Of a DNA stretch of 59,686 bases, positions 2,670 to 15,036 are shown in pieces. Numbering within the stretch: the stretch's first letter is position 1; each line of letters starts with the position of its first letter. The notes beneath the pieces are model-generated. The model was not told the origin of the DNA. It saw nothing but the letters and a program-made list of their open reading frames with translations, and ran no database searches. The stretch is from Patescibacteria group bacterium (lineage in GTDB: Bacteria > Patescibacteriota > WWE3 > JAUXAW01 > JAYEID01). The stretch lies in NCBI GenBank assembly GCA_034659915.1, contig JAYEID010000012.1:1-59686 (forward strand), written 5' to 3'. The position numbers and the translations under genes were made by a program.

Positions 2670-4187
2670 TTATTCTTCAAACATTGTCAAAATAATTCCA
2701 TCATTTACATTTTTATTGCTGGGTATTATTGTTTTTGCTCCTACTCTCTTAGCAATAGTTTCACCCAAGGCATTGCTAACTACCGCCCCATCTATCCACT
2801 TTGGATTACTAGGCATATAGCTCCGAAGTTCGTCTTTCGGCATCTGACGCATCTTTTCCGCATGTTTTTCCAAAGCACTAATAGATAACTCTTTCGGATG
2901 CTGCCGCGAATAATCGGAATTTTCCAATGGAAAACCAGTTATCAGCATATAATCAAGTTCTCCTCCAGTATAAATAAACAGAAGGTCACCCTCCAGCTTA
3001 CCTATACCTTTTTGATCCAAAACTTCTTCAATCTCACCAACCAGTTTTTTGTAGTCAGTTGCGGAAATTATATCTTCCGCATAATACTTTTCATTAAGAT
3101 CAGTTACACTCAAAGGGAAGCTAACATTCTTAATTATTTCTCCATCCGGATCACTTGTTACCAGCCGGGTAGTACTTCCGCCTACGTTCAAAACAGCCAA
3201 AGGACGTTCAACTCCCGCAAAACTTTCATGAACAGCCTCAAAAACTAAGCGAGCCTCGTCTTCCCCCGTTAAAACCTCCAACTCCAGCCCTGTCTTTTGC
3301 TTTATTGTAGACATAAACTCCTCGGCATTTTTAGCCATCCGCAAAGCACCAGTCCCTACCAACTTCACATCAACTGCACCGCGAGAGTCTGCTTCTTCCA
3401 AAAGCTCTTCAACTGCCTGAAGAGTTCGCTTCCGCGGCAATTCGCCCAAAACTTTTTTTTCAAAGAAGTTTTCTACCAAATTAGTATAAACTGATTTTTT
3501 GTGGACGGTCTCCGCGCTGCCATCCTTATTAACTTTACAAACATAAAGTTTAACTGTGCTAGAACCAAGATCAATAATTCCCAATATCACCGGATAGTTA
3601 AGTTTCTTACCACTCTGTAACTCTGCCTTTTCTCCTATACTATTAAAAATATGCCAATTGCTTTCATCAACATACTTTGGAATACCAATATCACCCCAAG
3701 TTACAAACCTTAGAGGCTGATCTGGCTTATGAGCAAGCCAGAAATAAATCTCCGCCAAAACACCCTCCGGAAAATTGGAAATATGCGCTGAAGTTTCTTT
3801 TCCATCAAACAGCGGACGCTCCTCTCCAAAGACCCACAACTCATCACACCCTTCAAGCAAGGAAAAACAATCCTTTACAACCTCTTCCTTCTTATTTTTA
3901 TGGGAAACGCTACTCAGATAATAATCGAGAGTACCAATAGGGTGAATAGGAACGTAGTTTAAGGAATAAGCAAACTCCCGCATAAAGTTTATGTATTTGT
4001 AAAACCTGCCTCCGCTAGAGAGATAAACTGTTTTTCTAAGATCTCGGTCAGGGTTGTGAGAAATTTTATTTAGCTTTTTCCTTTGCCCCTTATCTAATAA
4101 TTGGGCAAAATTGTCAAAGCTCAACTTGGTGGGGGAGGGAAGGCTATTGCGAGTGTTGAAATTTTTGTCACTTGACATTTGGCACAT
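2670..4187 (-). CDS. fusion protein: N-terminal nucleoside 2-deoxyribosyltransferase-like domain plus C-terminal Ppx/GppA (ASKHA) phosphatase domain
   Basis: The C-terminal part carries ASKHA/Ppx-GppA motifs: IIDLGSSTVKLYV, LVGTGALRMAKN, LNVGGSTTRL. Residues about 50-170 (VYLSSGG...CDELWVFGE...GVLAEIYFWL) resemble the NDT/DUF4406 Rossmann-like fold. Confidence 0.7.
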   Translation of the reverse strand: MCQMSSDKNFNTRNSLPSPTKLSFDNFAQLLDKGQRKKLNKISHNPDRDLRKTVYLSSGGRFYKYINFMREFAYSLNYVPIHPIGTLDYYLSSVSHKNKKEEVVKDCFSLLEGCDELWVFGEERPLFDGKETSAHISNFPEGVLAEIYFWLAHKPDQPLRFVTWGDIGIPKYVDESNWHIFNSIGEKAELQSGKKLNYPVILGIIDLGSSTVKLYVCKVNKDGSAETVHKKSVYTNLVENFFEKKVLGELPRKRTLQAVEELLEEADSRGAVDVKLVGTGALRMAKNAEEFMSTIKQKTGLELEVLTGEDEARLVFEAVHESFAGVERPLAVLNVGGSTTRLVTSDPDGEIIKNVSFPLSVTDLNEKYYAEDIISATDYKKLVGEIEEVLDQKGIGKLEGDLLFIYTGGELDYMLITGFPLENSDYSRQHPKELSISALEKHAEKMRQMPKDELRSYMPSNPKWIDGAVVSNALGETIAKRVGAKTIIPSNKNVNDGIILTMFEE

Positions 4188-4281: not shown

Positions 4282-4881
4282 ATGAACGAAATTGTTCGCG
4301 CCTATTTTGATGCGCAACCTAAACAAAAGGAGGAAGAGGTCCTCTGTCACAAAATTGTAGATATTCTTAGTCAAAAAGGCTGCAACGTAATCCAAACCAC
4401 ACTGGGAATAGAATGGGATTACATGGAAGAGTGGGGGAGGGAAGCTGCCACAAATATTTACAGTTCAAAAATCGAGGATATAAAAAGCTCTGATATTATT
4501 GTTCTAGAAATGTCGCGTAAATCACACCTTCTAGACTTCGAAGCAGTAGAAGCTATAAATCAATCCAAACCATCTCTCATCCTCTTTAACAAAAACAAAA
4601 ATGAACGCCCCGACGTTGCTCTACTCGGACACCCCTCTAGCAATTTAAAAATTATTGTATATAAAGAAGAAAATTTGGAAAAAATAATTGAGGATTTTCT
4701 CAAAAAAGCACAAAAGAAAGTTCCCCGGGTACGCTTTACAGTCCGCCTTTCCGAAGAAATAAATAACTATCTAAAATTCCTGAAAGCAAAATTAAAACTA
4801 TCTTCCAAAAACGATGTTGTTAACAAGATACTTGAAGAGAAAATGAAAAACGACCCCGACTATCAAAACATAAAACTCTAA
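4282..4881 (+). CDS. DNPH1/NDT-like domain fused to a C-terminal ribbon-helix-helix (CopG/Arc-like) DNA-binding domain
   Basis: 199 aa, colinear paralog of 8162..8740. C-terminal RFTVRLSEEINNYLKFLKAKLKLSSKNDVVNKIL fits the RHH strand-helix-helix pattern. Confidence 0.7.
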   Translation: MNEIVRAYFDAQPKQKEEEVLCHKIVDILSQKGCNVIQTTLGIEWDYMEEWGREAATNIYSSKIEDIKSSDIIVLEMSRKSHLLDFEAVEAINQSKPSLILFNKNKNERPDVALLGHPSSNLKIIVYKEENLEKIIEDFLKKAQKKVPRVRFTVRLSEEINNYLKFLKAKLKLSSKNDVVNKILEEKMKNDPDYQNIKL

Positions 4882-5149: not shown

Positions 5150-6013
5150 ATGCGGGGGAAATGCATTCAAATCTTTAAGATAAAAAATAAAAACCTTTTC
5201 CTAGAATCTGAAATAAGCCTTCCCGAACATTGCATAGAGCTAGAAACTTTTGACTCGCTGCTACTTGCTACCACCAGTAACTTCAAACGGGGACCAATAG
5301 AAAGAAGCTATCTCTACATTATCAACAAGAACACTCAAGAAATAGTCTCTAAAACTAGGACAGGTGGGTCTTGGAGCAAAGTTGCAAAAAAGCATCCCCA
5401 AAAAAATTTGGTTTTTGTTTCCAACTGGAGAAGTAATAACATCTCAATCATTGATATGGAAAATACGAAATCGCCCAAAATCAAACAGGTAATTCACTGC
5501 GGCAACCGTCCCCGGGGAATAACATTTACCCCAGAAGGCACAGTCTTAGTAGCAGGTTTTTACTCACGAAAACTACATTTCCTTAAAGAAAATAGGGGAA
5601 AATACCAAAAAAGCTCTAAACTTGTCCGGTTCGCGTCAAAAGCTTACAGCGGAAATATGCGAGATGTGCTCGTAACCAAAAATGGTAAATATGCCTACGT
5701 TTCCAATATGGGAAAAAATATGGTTCATAAATTTGATTTAGAAAAGAAAACATTTACAAAATCCACACTGGTAGGAAAATTTCCTAGTTCAATCCGCTTT
5801 TTAAACAATAAAGAAAACGCACTCCTTGTATCATGCAGAGAATCAAATTTCATTTATTTTCTTGACACAAAAAGAATGAAAATTATCGGTCACTCAGAAA
5901 AAACAAGCAAAAAGCCAACAGGACTAGCCCCTGTGCCAAGGGGTTTTCTTTGCACAGCTTTTAGATCAAATACCTTGGAATATCACAAGATTTCGACCAA
6001 TATATTAGTGTAA
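5150..6013 (+). CDS. YVTN/YncE-like beta-propeller repeat protein (possibly 5'-truncated)
   Basis: Repeated blade motifs: LVFVSNWRSNNISIID, YAYVSNMGKNMVHKFD. One more blade-like stretch (VIFDPQKNRAYVSC) lies in frame upstream of the first ATG, directly after a TAG at 5105-5107. Confidence 0.65.
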   Translation: MRGKCIQIFKIKNKNLFLESEISLPEHCIELETFDSLLLATTSNFKRGPIERSYLYIINKNTQEIVSKTRTGGSWSKVAKKHPQKNLVFVSNWRSNNISIIDMENTKSPKIKQVIHCGNRPRGITFTPEGTVLVAGFYSRKLHFLKENRGKYQKSSKLVRFASKAYSGNMRDVLVTKNGKYAYVSNMGKNMVHKFDLEKKTFTKSTLVGKFPSSIRFLNNKENALLVSCRESNFIYFLDTKRMKIIGHSEKTSKKPTGLAPVPRGFLCTAFRSNTLEYHKISTNILV

Positions 6014-6083
6014 AGAAAAGGCGGAGGGTGAAGCCTGCCTAAAACAAGGCAATTTTGCAATTTCAAACCTCCGCAAAAAAAGA

Positions 6084-6488
6084 TCAAACCAAAACCTTCT
6101 CTCCCTCTTCAACTGCTTGTGGGTCAACTGTAGTCCCACCCACATAAACAACCTCGAAAGCACCAAAAAGAATAAGGGTACGCCAATACTCATATTTTTC
6201 AACAAAGTCCTGGATTCTATCCAAGCAATCATTGGCATCACCCGCAGAATCAAACCGCAAAGTGACTGCCCCCTCTTTTTCCCCGCCATAAAAAGTATCA
6301 ATCTCAGAATGTCTGATTACACTTGCGGGAATCTTAAAACCGTTCACAGATCCCACAAAAATAACTCTCTGAAAGTTTAGCTCCACAGGACCAGATTCCT
6401 CTTCGCACGATAGCTGTATCCGAGCCTTATTGAATTCGTCTCTGCGCTGCCTGCCGTTCGGGAAAACCAAAGTAACCCAAGCCGCCAT
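6084..6488 (-). CDS. hypothetical protein (134 aa)
   Basis: Longest ORF in this interval. No motif recognised. Confidence 0.45.
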   Translation of the reverse strand: MAAWVTLVFPNGRQRRDEFNKARIQLSCEEESGPVELNFQRVIFVGSVNGFKIPASVIRHSEIDTFYGGEKEGAVTLRFDSAGDANDCLDRIQDFVEKYEYWRTLILFGAFEVVYVGGTTVDPQAVEEGEKVLV

Positions 6489-6923: not shown

Positions 6924-7643
6924 TTACTTAAATAACAGACTCACACCAGCAATAAAAACAAAAGCATAAATCGCACGCTCTATCCAAATTGGGCTCACTT
7001 TCTTAAAAAGCTCTGTTCCCAAGAACAGCCCCAAAAAGAGGCAAGGTAATGCGAAAAGAACATAACGCAATACTTCTCCAGTTATCCGCCCGGAAAGAAG
7101 GTGTCCCACAACAACAAAAACCCCGGTAATACCCATATAAGTAGCAACCAAATCCTTATTCTCATGTTTAGAAAGGTTTTCGTTTGCAATCGAATAGAGC
7201 CCAATCAAAGGACCATTAACATTAAAGGAAGCACCAAAAAACCCAGCAATAGACCCCATAATAAAACCGCCAACATTGCCCATCTTTAAGAAACTCTCTT
7301 TGCTAAAAAAGTTATAAAGGACGTACACAATAAGAACCACCCCCAAAATCAAAGAGAGTGTTTCCTCCTGAGCATATCCCAAAAATAAAATTCCCAACGG
7401 AACTCCAACAAAAGCTCCCGCAAAAAGCGGAATTAGGTGTGGAGAAAGATTGTGCGTTTTAGTCTTTATAGCAACAATACCAGTAGCAACTAGCGAAATA
7501 ACAGCTACCAGGGGGATAGCAGTAGAGAGAGGCAAGATAAAAGGAAGGAGAGACATTAAAATTGCAGAAATACCAAAACCAATTAGCTCCACTCCAACAC
7601 CAGCAATTAAAAAGGCAATTGCAAAAAGCAAATACTGCACCAT
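6924..7643 (-). CDS. TauE/SafE family sulfite/anion exporter (membrane)
   Basis: 239-aa polytopic membrane protein with the glycine-rich helices and length typical of TauE/SafE. Confidence 0.8.
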   Translation of the reverse strand: MVQYLLFAIAFLIAGVGVELIGFGISAILMSLLPFILPLSTAIPLVAVISLVATGIVAIKTKTHNLSPHLIPLFAGAFVGVPLGILFLGYAQEETLSLILGVVLIVYVLYNFFSKESFLKMGNVGGFIMGSIAGFFGASFNVNGPLIGLYSIANENLSKHENKDLVATYMGITGVFVVVGHLLSGRITGEVLRYVLFALPCLFLGLFLGTELFKKVSPIWIERAIYAFVFIAGVSLLFK

Positions 7644-7698
7644 GCAAAGTCTATTATAACAAAAGCTTATTTCAAAACCACAAAGAAAGAAAAAAAGC

Positions 7699-7766
7699 GG
7701 AAAGAGTAGAACCTGCGTTCTTGCTCAAGAGCGTTGAGCTTTTCTCCCCAGGGGAGTACTCTTTCC
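7699..7766. ncRNA. 68-nt cloverleaf-like structured element, copy A
   Basis: Closing stem GGAAAGAGTA/TACTCTTTCC encloses three hairpins: GAAC-CTGC-GTTC, GCTCAA-GAGCG-TTGAGC, CTCCC-CAG-GGGAG. Second copy at 10934..11001. Confidence 0.55.
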
Positions 7767-7792
7767 GTAATACTGCTCTTCCTAACGCGCAT

Positions 7793-7987
7793 TTAGCGCT
7801 TGGAGGGAGGGGGTCCCTGCTTACTCTCCAACTTGTCCCAAGCGTTTCGGTCCGCTTCTTGCCTGTCTCGGCCCCAAGCTCTCGCTCGGTTTCCAGTCTT
7901 GGTATCCTCAACAGTCGTCGAGCGACCCGTGCCGAGCAGGGCATCTAGAACACCAGTACTGTCATACTTCTTGAATCTTTTACCCAT
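7793..7987 (-). CDS. small basic protein (64 aa), hypothetical
   Basis: ATG preceded by AAGGAGGTGAgactg. Several frames are open here because the segment is GC-rich, so coding status is uncertain. Confidence 0.4.
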   Translation of the reverse strand: MGKRFKKYDSTGVLDALLGTGRSTTVEDTKTGNRARAWGRDRQEADRNAWDKLESKQGPPPSKR

Positions 7988-8042
7988 CAGTCTCACCTCC
8001 TTTCCATCTCTATCTGCAGCTAACTTTTTAAGGTTCGCCAAA

Positions 8043-8071
8043 ATTTTAAAACTACCTAGAAAAACAGGCAA
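8043..8071 (-). promoter_or_regulatory. sigma70-like promoter (TTGCCT-N17-TAAAAT) upstream of the 7793..7987 ORF
   Basis: On the minus strand the -35 is at 8066-8071 and the -10 at 8043-8048, with a 17-nt spacer, about 55 nt upstream of the ATG. Confidence 0.45.
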
Positions 8072-8088
8072 TTCCACATATTTATGCT

Positions 8089-8107
8089 GTGCATAATTTT
8101 TATGCAC
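8089..8107. promoter_or_regulatory. 19-bp perfect palindrome GTGCATAA-TTT-TTATGCAC (candidate operator)
   Basis: 8-bp arms, 18 nt upstream of the predicted -35 and directly downstream of the RHH-domain gene. Confidence 0.4.
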
Positions 8108-8161
8108 GTAAGAACAAAAAATTATCTGAGAAAGTAGGAAAAAGTAAGTAGGGGAGGGGTT

Positions 8162-8740
8162 TTACACTTCTTTTTTAATAAGCTGGCGAATAAACTCCGA
8201 CTTGCTTACCGAGTTTCTCTCAGTAGCTTCATTAAGCATTTTGTCAATTTCTGGCGAGATGTAAAAAGTAAATCTGCGATTAAAAGTATTTTTTACTTCT
8301 TCCAAACACCAATCCAAAACATCTTCCAAAATGTCCTCATCGTAAGCAGACTTAATTAATCGGCTGGAATCAGCCCCGTTTGCAAAAATAGGATTCCTAT
8401 TACTTTTGTAAATTAGTATGGTCGGTTTTTGCTGGGAAACAAGTTGTCCCAGCTGATACCCAGTGTGGATCGAGGATGGATACGAACCTTCAACAACTGC
8501 GCAGTCAGCTTTTGCCATCTGTGAAAACCACTCCTTACTCAACTCATTAAGCTTAAACTCAGGCAAGTTGCTAAATTCCTTTACATCCCCTGAATATAGT
8601 GCTTTGTAAACATCATGGCCTTGACCTTCTAAATAATTTACAATTCTTTCGTAGATATGCTGAAAGTCCGCTTTTTGTTCTTGCGAAGCTGTAAAATATA
8701 TTTTCATCTTTTCTTTACTCCCTAATAAAAAAGCTCCCAT
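8162..8740 (-). CDS. DNPH1/NDT-like domain fused to a C-terminal ribbon-helix-helix domain
   Basis: KIYFTAS...ADCAVVEGSYPSSIHTGYQLGQLVSQQKPTILIY resembles the DNPH1/Rcl core (YFCGS...PSLGVGYELG). The C-terminus RFTFYISPEIDKMLNEATERNSVSKSEFIRQLI is RHH-like. The likely true start is the ATG at 8707 (MKIYFTAS), preceded by AGGGAG. Confidence 0.75.
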   Translation of the reverse strand: MGAFLLGSKEKMKIYFTASQEQKADFQHIYERIVNYLEGQGHDVYKALYSGDVKEFSNLPEFKLNELSKEWFSQMAKADCAVVEGSYPSSIHTGYQLGQLVSQQKPTILIYKSNRNPIFANGADSSRLIKSAYDEDILEDVLDWCLEEVKNTFNRRFTFYISPEIDKMLNEATERNSVSKSEFIRQLIKKEV

Positions 8741-8750
8741 TAAGGGAGCT
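8727..8750 (-). terminator. hairpin AGCTCCC-TTAAT-GGGAGCT plus U-run in the leader of 8162..8707
   Basis: 7-bp stem followed by TTTTTT on the minus strand. The upstream in-frame ATG (8740) lies in its loop. Confidence 0.45.
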
Positions 8751-8778
8751 CAAACCGCGGATTTTCTATATTTCCGCG

Positions 8779-8812
8779 AAAAAAAAAAAAAAAAGCTCCC
8801 TTTTGCGGGAGC
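8779..8812 (-). terminator. strong intrinsic terminator (GCTCCC-GCAAAA-GGGAGC plus a 16-nt U-run)
   Basis: Read on the minus strand this is a perfect 6-bp GC stem followed by the 8779-8794 A-run (T-run on minus). Confidence 0.75.
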
Positions 8813-8858
8813 GTCCAAGAATTATCAAGGTGCTAGTCACTATTCACTTGTTATCAAC

Positions 8859-8887
8859 TTTATAGCACAAAGAGTTTTGGTTGTCAA
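8859..8887 (-). promoter_or_regulatory. near-consensus sigma70 promoter TTGACA-N17-TATAAA
   Basis: On the minus strand the -35 is at 8882-8887 and the -10 at 8859-8864, with a 17-nt spacer. It points toward the 8779-8812 terminator about 45-75 nt away. Confidence 0.55.
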
Positions 8888-9018
8888 ACGTTTTTTACAT
8901 AACATAACATTCATCTGCTCTAAGCCAGAATTGATCATACCCATGCACAAGCCAAAAGTTTGTGCTACCCTAAATTCAAAGCAAAACAAAACAAACCTAA
9001 AAGGGGGTGAATTTATGT

Positions 9019-9261
9019 ATGGTTAAAATAAGAAAGAAAGATAATAGCTTGGAAGATTTTGACCGCGAAAAGCTTCGCCGAAGTGTTTTGGCAGCTGGAC
9101 TTTCAAAGGAAAATGCTAATGATGTTACTAACCAAATTGAAACCTGGGTACAGCAAAGCGAGGATGTCGTCTCCACTGCCCAAATTCGGTCAAAAGTGAT
9201 TAACTTTATGGAATCCAAAAATCCAGAAGCTGCTAAAAACTACAAAAGCTACAAAAAATAA
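9019..9261 (+). CDS. stand-alone ATP-cone domain protein
   Basis: MVKIRKKDNSLEDFDREKLRRSVLAAGLS...VSTAQIRSKVINFM matches the ATP-cone pattern of NrdR/RNR N-termini. SD AAGGGGGTG upstream. The ORF track starts at the GTG at 9007. Confidence 0.8.
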   Translation: MVKIRKKDNSLEDFDREKLRRSVLAAGLSKENANDVTNQIETWVQQSEDVVSTAQIRSKVINFMESKNPEAAKNYKSYKK

Positions 9262-13104: not shown

Positions 13105-15036
13105 ATGAGTAGGTCGAAAGCTGTCCTTAGTATAACCCTTATCATTAGTATACTGCTAGCACCCGTAGTAGGGTGGGGAGCAGTACCACTCCAAGCTTCA
13201 AAGCCTGTTGATAGTTTTAACTTGGAGATCGATATCGAAAATGACGGGAGTATTACTATCCGCGAACTGGAGGTGGGGGATCTAGATATTTCAATCCCGG
13301 TAGACGGAGAAGAGGTTGAAATGCATCTGGATGGACTCCAGTTACGAAACATAAGCACCCGTACCTTGGGAAAACTACTTGCCAACTATGGTATTGAAAC
13401 CGAGATTCCAGAATTTACCCTGGACCCTCAGCAGGTAAGGGTACTGGTAGGTTATGGAGTTGAACACCTTGGGCTACGCAAAGTATCCCACGGAGCATGG
13501 CAAGAGCTAAGCCTCTACATCAACAACACCAAGTCTTTAGAAGCAGGTTTTGCAGATGAGACTCTAGACCTCCTGCTTACAGAAATGCGGTTAAGAAAAG
13601 AGGAAGCAGAGATGCTTAGAAGCTTTCTCTTGAAAGGCGCGGGGCAATTACTAGTTAACCTACCCAAGGCAGAAACAAAACCCTTATTCACCGACCAAGT
13701 CGAGGCTGAGAACAACCCACCGTTAAACACGGTGAGAGTAGGCGCTACACTCTCAGGAACAACTTCTGCTGGGGAAATAATCTCAGTGGGAGGAATAACC
13801 TTCGAGGAAGCAAACAAGGTACTACAAGGTATGGGCATCCCAACCCGTTGGCCCTTCTTAGTAGCCAACCCGTTAACAATCCTAGAGACGGAAACCCTAA
13901 TAGCCAATGCAGGCAGAAACGGATTCCGACTGGAGAGCAACAACGGGCACTGGGCTCAAATAAGGTGGGACCAAGAAGGACGAGAAGCCCTATACAACAT
14001 AGCCCCTGTTGCCTTCGACCTGGCAGAACAGTACAACTACAAGCTCCCTGTTTCGGCAGAAGAAGTTGCGACTGCTGCCTCGCTAGCAGAAGTTGCGCTG
14101 CCCAAAACAGAGCTGGTGCTTACTATTCACAACAGCACAGCACAGGTGGAAAGCAGCCCCAAAATCAAGGTTGGCCAAGTGCTGACATTCGAACTAGACA
14201 AGAGCGGCAATATCTTGCTTAACGGTGTTCCAGCGGGAACAACCTTCCTGGATTACAATTGGCTTGACTATCTAGGACCGGTTGCTGTTAGTTGGGACGG
14301 AGAAGCAAGGGAAGTCCGCTACACTGCAGATGAAGTAGCTTTACCACCAATATTTGTAGCCGAAGATGCTGCTGTCCAAGCAGGTGAAATTGCAGCCAAG
14401 AGCTTCCCGAATAGTCCAACGCTTGCGGAAGCTCCCTGGTCTAAGCTAGATAACTTGCTAGCAAACACCAGCTTAACAGGGATTGTTCTAACCACAGCCG
14501 GAGAAGCGCCCAAAGAGCTGAACTTGGAATACAGTGCAAAAAGTAGCATCGAGCCGCAAACAAGTGTTCTCCCTTCCTTGGCTTTGGATAGGGAAGGGAA
14601 TATTGCACTGGGAAGCGATAAGGCAGCTCTCAACCTAACGCCCTACTTGGAAGAGAATGGCATATCTCTAACAGAGATAGCAAGCCTAGTTCCGCTAGGT
14701 ATTAAAGATGCCAGACTCTCTGTAGATTCCAACCAAGTGGGCATCAACCTCAACGGGGCAAGTAACCCTATAATAGGTCTGCGTTGGGATTACGGATTAC
14801 GGAAGAACGCTTTCAACACAGCAGACAAGGCATTTGGCGTGCGAAACTTCGTAAACCTCACAACCTACGGGATCGCAGACGCAATATTCCCTTACTGGGA
14901 GGAAACCGCCACCGAAATGGTTGCAGGGGGTCGCGGGTTCCAGTGGGGAATCCGAGTGATCATGGTAGAGAATGTAGAAGAGCTACCATCCTCACCCGCC
15001 GAGAACCTTCTCAAAAGACTAGGCATTACGCCCTAG
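13105..15036 (+). CDS. secreted hypothetical protein (643 aa)
   Basis: N-terminal signal-like segment MSRSKAVLSITLIISILLAPVVGWGAVPLQA. Visibly GC-richer and poorer in K/N than its neighbours. No known motif. Confidence 0.7.
   Translation: MSRSKAVLSITLIISILLAPVVGWGAVPLQASKPVDSFNLEIDIENDGSITIRELEVGDLDISIPVDGEEVEMHLDGLQLRNISTRTLGKLLANYGIETEIPEFTLDPQQVRVLVGYGVEHLGLRKVSHGAWQELSLYINNTKSLEAGFADETLDLLLTEMRLRKEEAEMLRSFLLKGAGQLLVNLPKAETKPLFTDQVEAENNPPLNTVRVGATLSGTTSAGEIISVGGITFEEANKVLQGMGIPTRWPFLVANPLTILETETLIANAGRNGFRLESNNGHWAQIRWDQEGREALYNIAPVAFDLAEQYNYKLPVSAEEVATAASLAEVALPKTELVLTIHNSTAQVESSPKIKVGQVLTFELDKSGNILLNGVPAGTTFLDYNWLDYLGPVAVSWDGEAREVRYTADEVALPPIFVAEDAAVQAGEIAAKSFPNSPTLAEAPWSKLDNLLANTSLTGIVLTTAGEAPKELNLEYSAKSSIEPQTSVLPSLALDREGNIALGSDKAALNLTPYLEENGISLTEIASLVPLGIKDARLSVDSNQVGINLNGASNPIIGLRWDYGLRKNAFNTADKAFGVRNFVNLTTYGIADAIFPYWEETATEMVAGGRGFQWGIRVIMVENVEELPSSPAENLLKRLGITP

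Follow-up and report, generated by a model that had tools for sequence, protein, structure and literature searches.

The 59,686 nucleotides of contig JAYEID010000012.1 from a Patescibacteria assembly (GCA_034659915.1), a stretch called the window below, contain two paralogous genes that each fuse a domain related to the nucleotide hydrolase DNPH1 (Rcl) to a C-terminal ribbon-helix-helix (RHH) domain. The gene under study, 8162-8707, is on balance best read as encoding an RHH regulator that responds to a ligand through a DNPH1-derived sensor and that would bind a conserved palindrome located past the stop codon of the gene; this is a new domain combination within a known class, that of the one-component regulators with an enzyme-derived sensor. 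An earlier annotation of this DNA (the initial annotation) had proposed an enzyme fold acting as a sensor that drives an RHH regulator; the proposal is strengthened by the loss of the catalytic Glu with the pocket kept, by the loss of the catalytic Asp and by the palindrome, and it is still put conditionally here.

Both open reading frames (ORFs) that the initial annotation had delimited, 8162-8740 and 4282-4881, exist in the window. As for the first, its stop side stands and its start has to be moved from 8740 to 8707: Met12, the twelfth codon of the longer ORF, is where the homologues start and where the collection itself places the start of this gene on the contig, and for this reason the gene is taken as 8162-8707. 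A Shine-Dalgarno-like AGGGAG lies about 10 nt ahead of the ATG at 8707, and the ATG at 8740 falls within a terminator-like hairpin. The two proteins had been said to align end to end, and they are full-length paralogs: BLASTP gave 26% identity over 164 columns (E=5e-8), and hhalign of the two family alignments (A1, 29 sequences of the 8162-8707 protein family; A2, eight sequences of the paralog family) gave a probability of 98.9% (E=1.9e-17) over 182 columns, with the C-terminal RHH segment included. No further copy was found when hidden Markov models of both families were searched against all window ORFs.

Regarding the N-terminal domain, the first ~140 amino acids of the 8162 protein are homologous to DNPH1/Rcl, as judged by sequence and by predicted fold. 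The single protein, searched with phmmer against the PDB, retrieved rat Rcl (E=3.9e-5, residues 7-147), and the family profiles reached Rcl/DNPH1 at E=3.7e-10 (A1) and 3e-7 (A2), with no unrelated protein scoring. The AlphaFold2 model built on A1 (mean pLDDT, the per-residue confidence, 81.6; pTM 0.69) has an alternating strand-helix core followed by two short helices. Foldseek of this model against the PDB placed human and rat DNPH1 on top (E=1.3e-6, target TM-score up to 0.78), then the cytidine monophosphate (CMP) N-glycosidases MilB (E=1e-5) and BcmB, and then the nucleoside 2-deoxyribosyltransferases (NDTs, E=5e-4); the matches with E<=1e-4 were DNPH1 or MilB without exception. In the NDT family PF05014, the two window proteins scored 15.2 and 16.3 bits, below the gathering score of 28.8, and 17 of 29 homologues matched at E<0.01 (best E 2.7e-5), also sub-threshold. 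The DNPH1/NDT-like assignment made initially is thus borne out, because phmmer, the profiles and Foldseek returned this superfamily and nothing else, with no sign of an unrelated fold.

DNPH1 is a homodimer with a catalytic triad of Tyr24, Asp80 and Glu104, and its E104Q variant is inactive, yet it binds the intact substrate (PMC10603095). The corresponding columns were counted in 166 full-length family members (the 29 first matches plus 50%-identity cluster representatives) aligned with rat Rcl. The triad Tyr is Tyr or Phe in 149 of them (Tyr4 in the 8162 copy, Tyr8 in the paralog), the first phosphate-site Ser is present in 117 (Ser8) and the second in 142 (Ser78); Gly83 is kept in 160, and Lys94-Pro95 are likewise conserved. 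The position of the catalytic Asp is instead hydrophobic (W/L/V/M) in the family, with Trp60 in the 8162 copy, whereas the paralog has Lys63 there; the column beside it holds K/E/Q, without a conserved acid. The nucleophile Glu is found in 108 members and replaced by Leu, Gln, Ile or another residue in 58 (35%), 37 of which keep Tyr/Phe4, Ser8 and Ser78. As the initial annotation had read, the 8162 copy carries Gln (Gln85); the 4282 copy has Glu (Glu87). Within A1, Gln is confined to the 8162 protein and its 78% identical relative P0002, and the Glu is invariant in the eight-member paralog family. The same annotation was right that the SIRGG loop of DNPH1 is not kept: the 8162 copy reads TASQEQK, the R-G-G part is missing in the window copies, and a similar S-[IL]-R-G-K occurs in few family members. 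The positions of the DNPH1 E55/H56 lid are unconserved.

Gln85 at the nucleophile position points to a sensor rather than an enzyme, since the same change inactivates DNPH1 and leaves substrate binding in place. A doubtful alternative is that of an enzyme that doubles as a repressor, comparable to PutA or BirA, with N-glycosidase or transferase activity on a possibly modified nucleoside 5'-phosphate and with the RHH coupling its occupancy to transcription. This would cover the Glu-containing members, including the paralog, and it agrees with the Glu being kept in the majority of the representatives and throughout the paralog family, with the mostly retained Tyr and Ser residues, with the S-[IL]-R-G-K of some members, and with a neighbouring Qng1-like gene (see below), whose product is itself a nucleotide N-glycosidase and would provide a salvage pathway context. 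However, the Asp equivalent to human D80 is missing family-wide, a third of the members have Leu, Gln or Ile in place of the nucleophile, the 8162 copy has the residue that inactivates DNPH1, and the PF05014 scores stay below the gathering score. In a more daring form of the rather unlikely queuosine-switch role sketched below, members that keep the Glu and lack the Asp could be covalently phosphoribosylated by their ligand, as single-turnover sensors.

A further alternative is a constitutive RHH regulator, whose DNPH1-like domain would be a mere di- or tetramerisation scaffold with a decayed pocket and no small-molecule ligand. The obligate homodimeric state of DNPH1, the need of RHH proteins for higher-order assembly on two half-sites, and the loss of the Asp, often of the Glu, and of the lid residues go in this direction. 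It is nevertheless unlikely, given that residues unrelated to the dimer interface (Tyr/Phe4, Ser78, Gly83, Lys94-Pro95) are conserved even in the members devoid of Glu, which argues for selection on the pocket itself. A pocket framework that is kept while the catalytic residues are dispensable is what would be expected if an enzyme fold had become a module for ligand binding.

As for the C-terminal domain, the 8162 copy scored 24.5 bits on Pfam RHH_1 (PF01402), above the gathering score of 20.5 bits, and the family was matched by 14 of the 29 homologues. In the model, residues 145-150 are extended and precede helices at 152-165 and 169-180. R145, F146 and R174 are near-invariant in the 166 sequences, R145 and T/N147 are conserved, and the strand R-F-T-F-[FY] is recognisable even among relatives of 25-30% identity; the strands of CopG and NikR also carry Arg and Thr/Asn at alternate positions. 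The initial description of a textbook RHH therefore holds for the 8162 copy, with Pfam, the model and the homologue matches all placing an RHH at its C-terminus; for the paralog, it rests on the hhalign alignment with the A1 RHH and on a weak match to the NikR RHH (E=1.1).

The family is large. At E<=1e-3, a profile search against 1.84 billion cluster representatives (50% identity) retrieved 1371 proteins, and at E<=1e-10 the count was at least 653 clusters; the best 150 matches are nearly all 180-200 amino acids long and align end to end with the profile, therefore the fusion is a fixed architecture. Most members are in Microgenomates, and the named sources are Patescibacteria (Beckwith-, Gottesman-, Chisholm-, Roizman- and Daviesbacteria); some metagenome-assembled genomes are titled 'Gammaproteobacteria', 'Pseudomonadales' or 'Saccharibacteria', labels that were judged untrustworthy. 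The sources annotate the proteins as no more than 'CopG family' or 'hypothetical', neither Pfam nor NCBIfam was found to have a model dedicated to the fusion or to its N-terminal domain, and full-text literature searches found no paper pairing an RHH with a deoxyribosyltransferase (DNPH1-like) domain in one protein, all of which fits the initial view of an uncharacterised architecture.

Regarding the DNA that the protein may bind, the palindrome pointed out initially at 8089-8107 is real, occurs once in the window, and proved to be a conserved element associated with the family. Its arms are conserved, with a different centre, in L007, the locus of a close relative; TTCATA-N5-TATGAA was seen independently upstream of a methyltransferase operon at three other loci (L001, L014, L009), and the window element differs from this sequence by a symmetric change, a T-to-G in one arm matched by an A-to-C in the second arm. 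The resulting motif, T[GT]CATA-N5-TATG[AC]A, was scanned at <=1 mismatch and compared with shuffles. The discovery set (21 unique loci plus the window, thus 22 sources, 266 kb) gave 21 matches versus 4.8 in shuffles, 18 of them within 1.5 kb of a family gene by our own count; the independent set, made of 24 non-redundant metagenome loci (102 kb) fetched after the discovery set, gave 17 matches (12 exact) versus 1.8, with 14 of the 24 loci positive. One-mismatch matches inside the family gene (TTCATATTGGnTTTGAA) are codons of its IHIGFE motif and were treated as coincidence.

The motif takes three positions. In the first, it precedes the methyltransferase-regulator operon, ~810-890 bp upstream of the family gene. 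In the second, it precedes Q_salvage, ~980-1030 bp past the family gene stop, and is separated by 30-60 bp from the Q_salvage start codon, as in L012, L025 and L026. In the third (the window, L007, L005, L009, L021, L023, L056, L061), it lies 1-76 bp past the regulator stop, ahead of the next gene, with 24-27 bp as a recurrent distance. The fusion gene is the only gene common to all the motif-bearing loci and the RHH strand RFTF[FY] is conserved throughout, hence we infer that the motif is the operator of the fusion protein. It seems quite unlikely that the motif is instead a hairpin at the end of a transcript, a repeat or a site for some other regulator, with the fusion protein acting elsewhere or only on itself. 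The element does stand a few bp from a stop codon at several loci (after YchF in L001, after the family gene in L021 and L023), and the G/T and C/A changes of its arms are usually symmetric, as a hairpin would require. However, at loci whose proteins share only 25-50% identity, it is the sequence of the arms that is retained, beyond their mere pairing, and the spacer is free to vary; mixed arms such as TTCATA...TATGCA, present in L011, L017 and L036, break the hairpin pairing, and no T-run follows the window palindrome. These features favour a protein site over an RNA hairpin. In addition, the motif was not found in L027, a locus with the paralog family only.

As for an operator of the paralog, the three available intergenic regions between the paralog and its Ppx/GppA neighbour share TGACA/TGTCA words, without a convincing common palindrome. 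Rfam searches of the whole window at gathering thresholds returned only a tRNA-Leu, and those of 7600-9060 at E<=1 returned only sub-threshold leader and small-RNA matches, driven by terminator-like hairpins; no RNA family was found that would account for this region. As a separate observation, a conserved 22-codon ORF (MVYGNIFIFKTVEMGANILVNV in L001), which could encode a leader peptide or a small membrane peptide, sits between the palindrome/promoter and the methyltransferase start in L001 (1840-1910) and in L014 (~1215-1285).

The gene neighbourhoods suggest what the family may control in most relatives. In relatives at 38-52% identity, a class I S-adenosylmethionine (SAM) methyltransferase gene is directly upstream, often overlapping the start of the fusion gene, and a Q_salvage/DUF2419 gene (its protein scoring 199 bits on PF10343) converges on the 3' end; this triad of methyltransferase, fusion gene and convergent Q_salvage occurs at no fewer than 18 non-redundant loci. 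Qng1, the eukaryotic homologue of Q_salvage, releases queuine by hydrolysis of queuosine 5'-monophosphate (PMC9881137). A different arrangement marks the lineage made up of the window and of L007 and L005, its closest relatives: L005 has the paralog and a Ppx/GppA fusion gene nearby, as in the window, and L007 has neither within its 6.8 kb. The paralog family is head-to-head with the Ppx/GppA fusion gene at all three available loci (the window, L005 and L027), and the Ppx/GppA fusion protein of L005 is 74% identical to that of the window.

From these neighbourhoods, a more specific and rather unlikely role can be sketched, that of a dedicated switch of the queuine/queuosine-salvage locus in Microgenomates. 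The pocket would sense queuosine 5'-phosphate, or another modified nucleoside monophosphate from nucleic-acid turnover, and the protein would control the Qng1-like hydrolase and the methyltransferase via the motif; the window copies would then be rewired offshoots, dealing with a small protein and with the Ppx/GppA fusion. Very improbable, finally, is an RHH antitoxin or defence component with an NDT/TIR-like nucleotide-processing effector: type II antitoxins commonly have an RHH domain, nucleotide-based conflict systems include NDT/TIR-like folds and the Foldseek list includes a bacterial TIR (E ~3e-3), but there is no conserved toxin-like partner, the neighbours vary or are housekeeping genes and their clustering gives only methyltransferase and Q_salvage, PADLOC was empty for five local proteins, and the TscA and RelB antitoxin models score far below their cut-offs.

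Returning to the ligand-responsive regulator, its mechanism may be outlined as follows. Both genes would encode one-component transcription factors of an undescribed architecture. The DNPH1/Rcl-derived domain would provide a ligand pocket, most likely for a nucleoside 5'-monophosphate, possibly modified, and would double as an oligomerisation module; the C-terminal RHH would read the DNA, with the 8162-8707 protein binding T[GT]CATA-N5-TATG[AC]A at 8090-8106. The half-site centres are 11 bp apart, a distance at which two RHH dimers, joined by their N-terminal domains, would fit along the same face of the helix, as they do on Arc-type operators. Ligand occupancy would alter DNA binding, and hence the expression of the adjacent genes. 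The predicted target is a small ORF (7793-7987) in the window and, in most relatives, the regulator's own operon with the SAM methyltransferase, together with the convergent Qng1-like queuosine-salvage gene. The paralog would control the divergent Ppx/GppA fusion gene in the same way, acting at an operator distinct from this motif.

It should be noted that several points weigh against this regulator. With the nucleophile Glu retained by 65% of the family and by the paralog, some members could be active enzymes. No Pfam match was obtained for the RHH of the paralog. The motif was not found in eight of the 22 discovery sources and in 10 of the 24 independent loci, and a different factor could bind the palindrome; the ligand, the DNA binding and the regulation are all predicted from sequence. 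The neighbours of distant members are unrelated (SecA, RsmI-like, NDK, a permease, as identified by reading of the sequences), and do not add up to one regulon. With tblastn, the methyltransferase and Q_salvage were found nowhere in the 59.7 kb of the window, so the queuosine link may not apply to its copy. Lastly, the palindrome of the window is centred near -62 of the predicted promoter, a placement more usual for an activator or for an upstream site than for a repressor of the classical kind.

Among known systems, DNPH1/Rcl is the closest to the N-terminal ~140 amino acids, with a target TM-score of 0.75 in Foldseek (E=1e-6); the Tyr, both phosphate-site Ser, the position of the G-[YF]-E-x-G motif and K-P all align. 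DNPH1/Rcl differs in having the catalytic Asp, which the fusion family lacks, and the Glu, which is Gln in the 8162 copy and lost in about a third of the family, and in its SIRGG loop, absent from the window copies, whereas the fusion family is bacterial (Patescibacteria) and has the C-terminal RHH. MilB and BcmB, which are CMP and hydroxymethyl-CMP N-glycosidases, and the NDTs (PF05014) have the superfamily fold in common with the fusion N-terminus, but their sequence similarity is weaker than that of DNPH1 and they are stand-alone enzymes without a DNA-binding domain. NikR also combines an RHH with an oligomerising ligand-binding domain and a palindrome of two half-sites, and its strand has the R-x-T-x-T/Y pattern, as in the fusion protein; its domain order is reversed with respect to the fusion, where the RHH is C-terminal, its sensor is an ACT-like metal site and not a nucleotide-hydrolase fold, and a gap of 16 bp separates its half-sites, against 5 bp in the fusion motif. 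In PutA, BirA, NrtR and Bacillus PurR, a metabolic enzyme fold gives ligand specificity to a transcription factor, and NrtR, which has a Nudix fold, keeps its catalytic residues in some members and has lost them in others; however, none of the four has the DNPH1/NDT fold, and only PutA has an RHH, which is N-terminal there. NikR, PutA, NrtR and PurR are functional analogues of the fusion proteins and not relatives. Qng1/DUF2419 (Q_salvage, PF10343), the conserved neighbour, has an unrelated fold and acts on a modified nucleoside 5'-monophosphate (PMC9881137).

The hundreds of 50%-identity clusters would make this family one of the few regulator types apparently specific to Patescibacteria, bacteria with tiny genomes, few recognisable regulators, and a dependence on salvaged nucleotides and micronutrients. 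The predicted operator and, in most lineages, the predicted target genes (queuosine salvage) make it directly testable. If the queuosine link were true, there would be protein-based control of the salvage of queuosine precursors beside the known preQ1 riboswitches, and the DNPH1/NDT fold would be extended from catalysis to sensing. The features of the window are collected in Table 1.

Table 1. Coordinates, strand and basis of the features discussed for the window
Feature	Position	Strand	Basis and remarks
DNPH1-like + RHH fusion gene (P0001, 181 aa)	8162..8707	-	stop codon 8162-8164, ATG at 8707; ORF list, homologue starts
N-terminal DNPH1/NDT-superfamily domain (aa 1-~142)	8282..8707	-	PDB sequence matches to Rcl/DNPH1, AlphaFold model and Foldseek, column statistics
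Codon CAG (Gln85) at the DNPH1 nucleophile Glu position (human E104, rat E93)	8453..8455	-	GYQLG versus GYELG in the Rcl alignment
C-terminal RHH (aa 144-181), strand RRFTFY, helices 152-165 and 169-180	8165..8278	-	Pfam RHH_1, model secondary structure
Palindrome GTGCATAA-TTT-TTATGCAC (N3 centre), candidate operator	8089..8107	.	core T[GT]CATA-N5-TATG[AC]A at 8090-8106; 55 bp past the stop of the 8162 gene
Promoter-like TTGCCT-17-TAAAAT, downstream of the palindrome	8043..8071	-	consensus scan; position kept in L007 (TTGCTT-17-TACAAT)
Small ORF, 64 aa (MGKRFKKYDSTG...), strong GGAGG ribosome-binding site	7793..7987	-	gene placed under palindrome and promoter
Leader of the 8162 gene	8731..8887	-	promoter-like, two terminator-like hairpins with a CGCGG/CCGCG hairpin between; fold z-score -3.7
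Paralog, DNPH1-like + RHH fusion (P0030, 199 aa)	4282..4881	+	Glu87 codon 4540-4542; Lys63 at the Asp position; RHH aa ~149-190 (RFTVRLSEEINNYL...)
Ppx/GppA-family phosphatase with ~190-aa N-terminal extension	2670..4178	-	Pfam Ppx-GppA 89.6 bits; divergent from the paralog

Regarding the local wiring, the cargo placed under the conserved operator and promoter differs among close relatives. The small ORF of the window has no Pfam or PADLOC match, and no homology was detectable among the small ORFs past the palindrome in the window, L007 and L005. In L007, this slot (5725-6120) encodes a protein made of CCHC zinc-knuckle-like repeats (ECAQCGSxxHxxxxCPHG), five in tandem, and then a basic protein of 60 amino acids; in L005, it holds several acidic small proteins. 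In L001 and L014, the palindrome abuts the -35 hexamer, at variance with its placement in the window, and the sign of the regulation is thus not readable from position.

As for the leader of the 8162 gene, it begins with a near-consensus promoter, TTGACA-17-TATAAA, at 8887-8858; hairpin 1, at 8812-8795, is followed by T16, and hairpin 2, at 8751-8731, ends ~20 nt ahead of the start codon. The two hairpins are near-identical (GCTCCC...GGGAGC) and able to pair with each other. This block is conserved with L007, while the DNA farther upstream is not; it has no Rfam family above threshold, and may represent an attenuator or a small RNA. The sequence analysis of the window gave no evidence for binding of the 8162 protein to its own leader.

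The N-terminal extension of the Ppx/GppA fusion protein has, at residues ~45-165, the motifs VYLSSGG...CDELWVF...PEGVLAE. It reached Pfam DUF7768 at E=0.09, a single homologue of it was found, and its model is poor (pLDDT 54.6); Foldseek of this low-confidence model listed NDTs, DNPH1 and TIR domains among the best matches (E ~5e-3), which is suggestive of another NDT/TIR-like domain, and no more than suggestive. An extra NDT-like domain in the extension is not claimed; hhalign against A1 gave a probability of 0.2% and phmmer against the PDB was empty. The homologue, P0188, has two copies of the extension domain and no Ppx part.

Divergent from the 8162 gene is a stand-alone 84-amino-acid ATP-cone protein (9007-9261, + strand; Pfam 47.8 bits), which adds another putative nucleotide-sensing module to this intergenic neighbourhood. 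Elsewhere in the window, a 643-amino-acid ORF (13105-15036, + strand) and a 134-amino-acid ORF (6084-6488, - strand) have no Pfam match at E<=0.01. The G+C content is 0.46-0.48 between 14 and 18 kb, compared with ~0.40 in the rest of the window.

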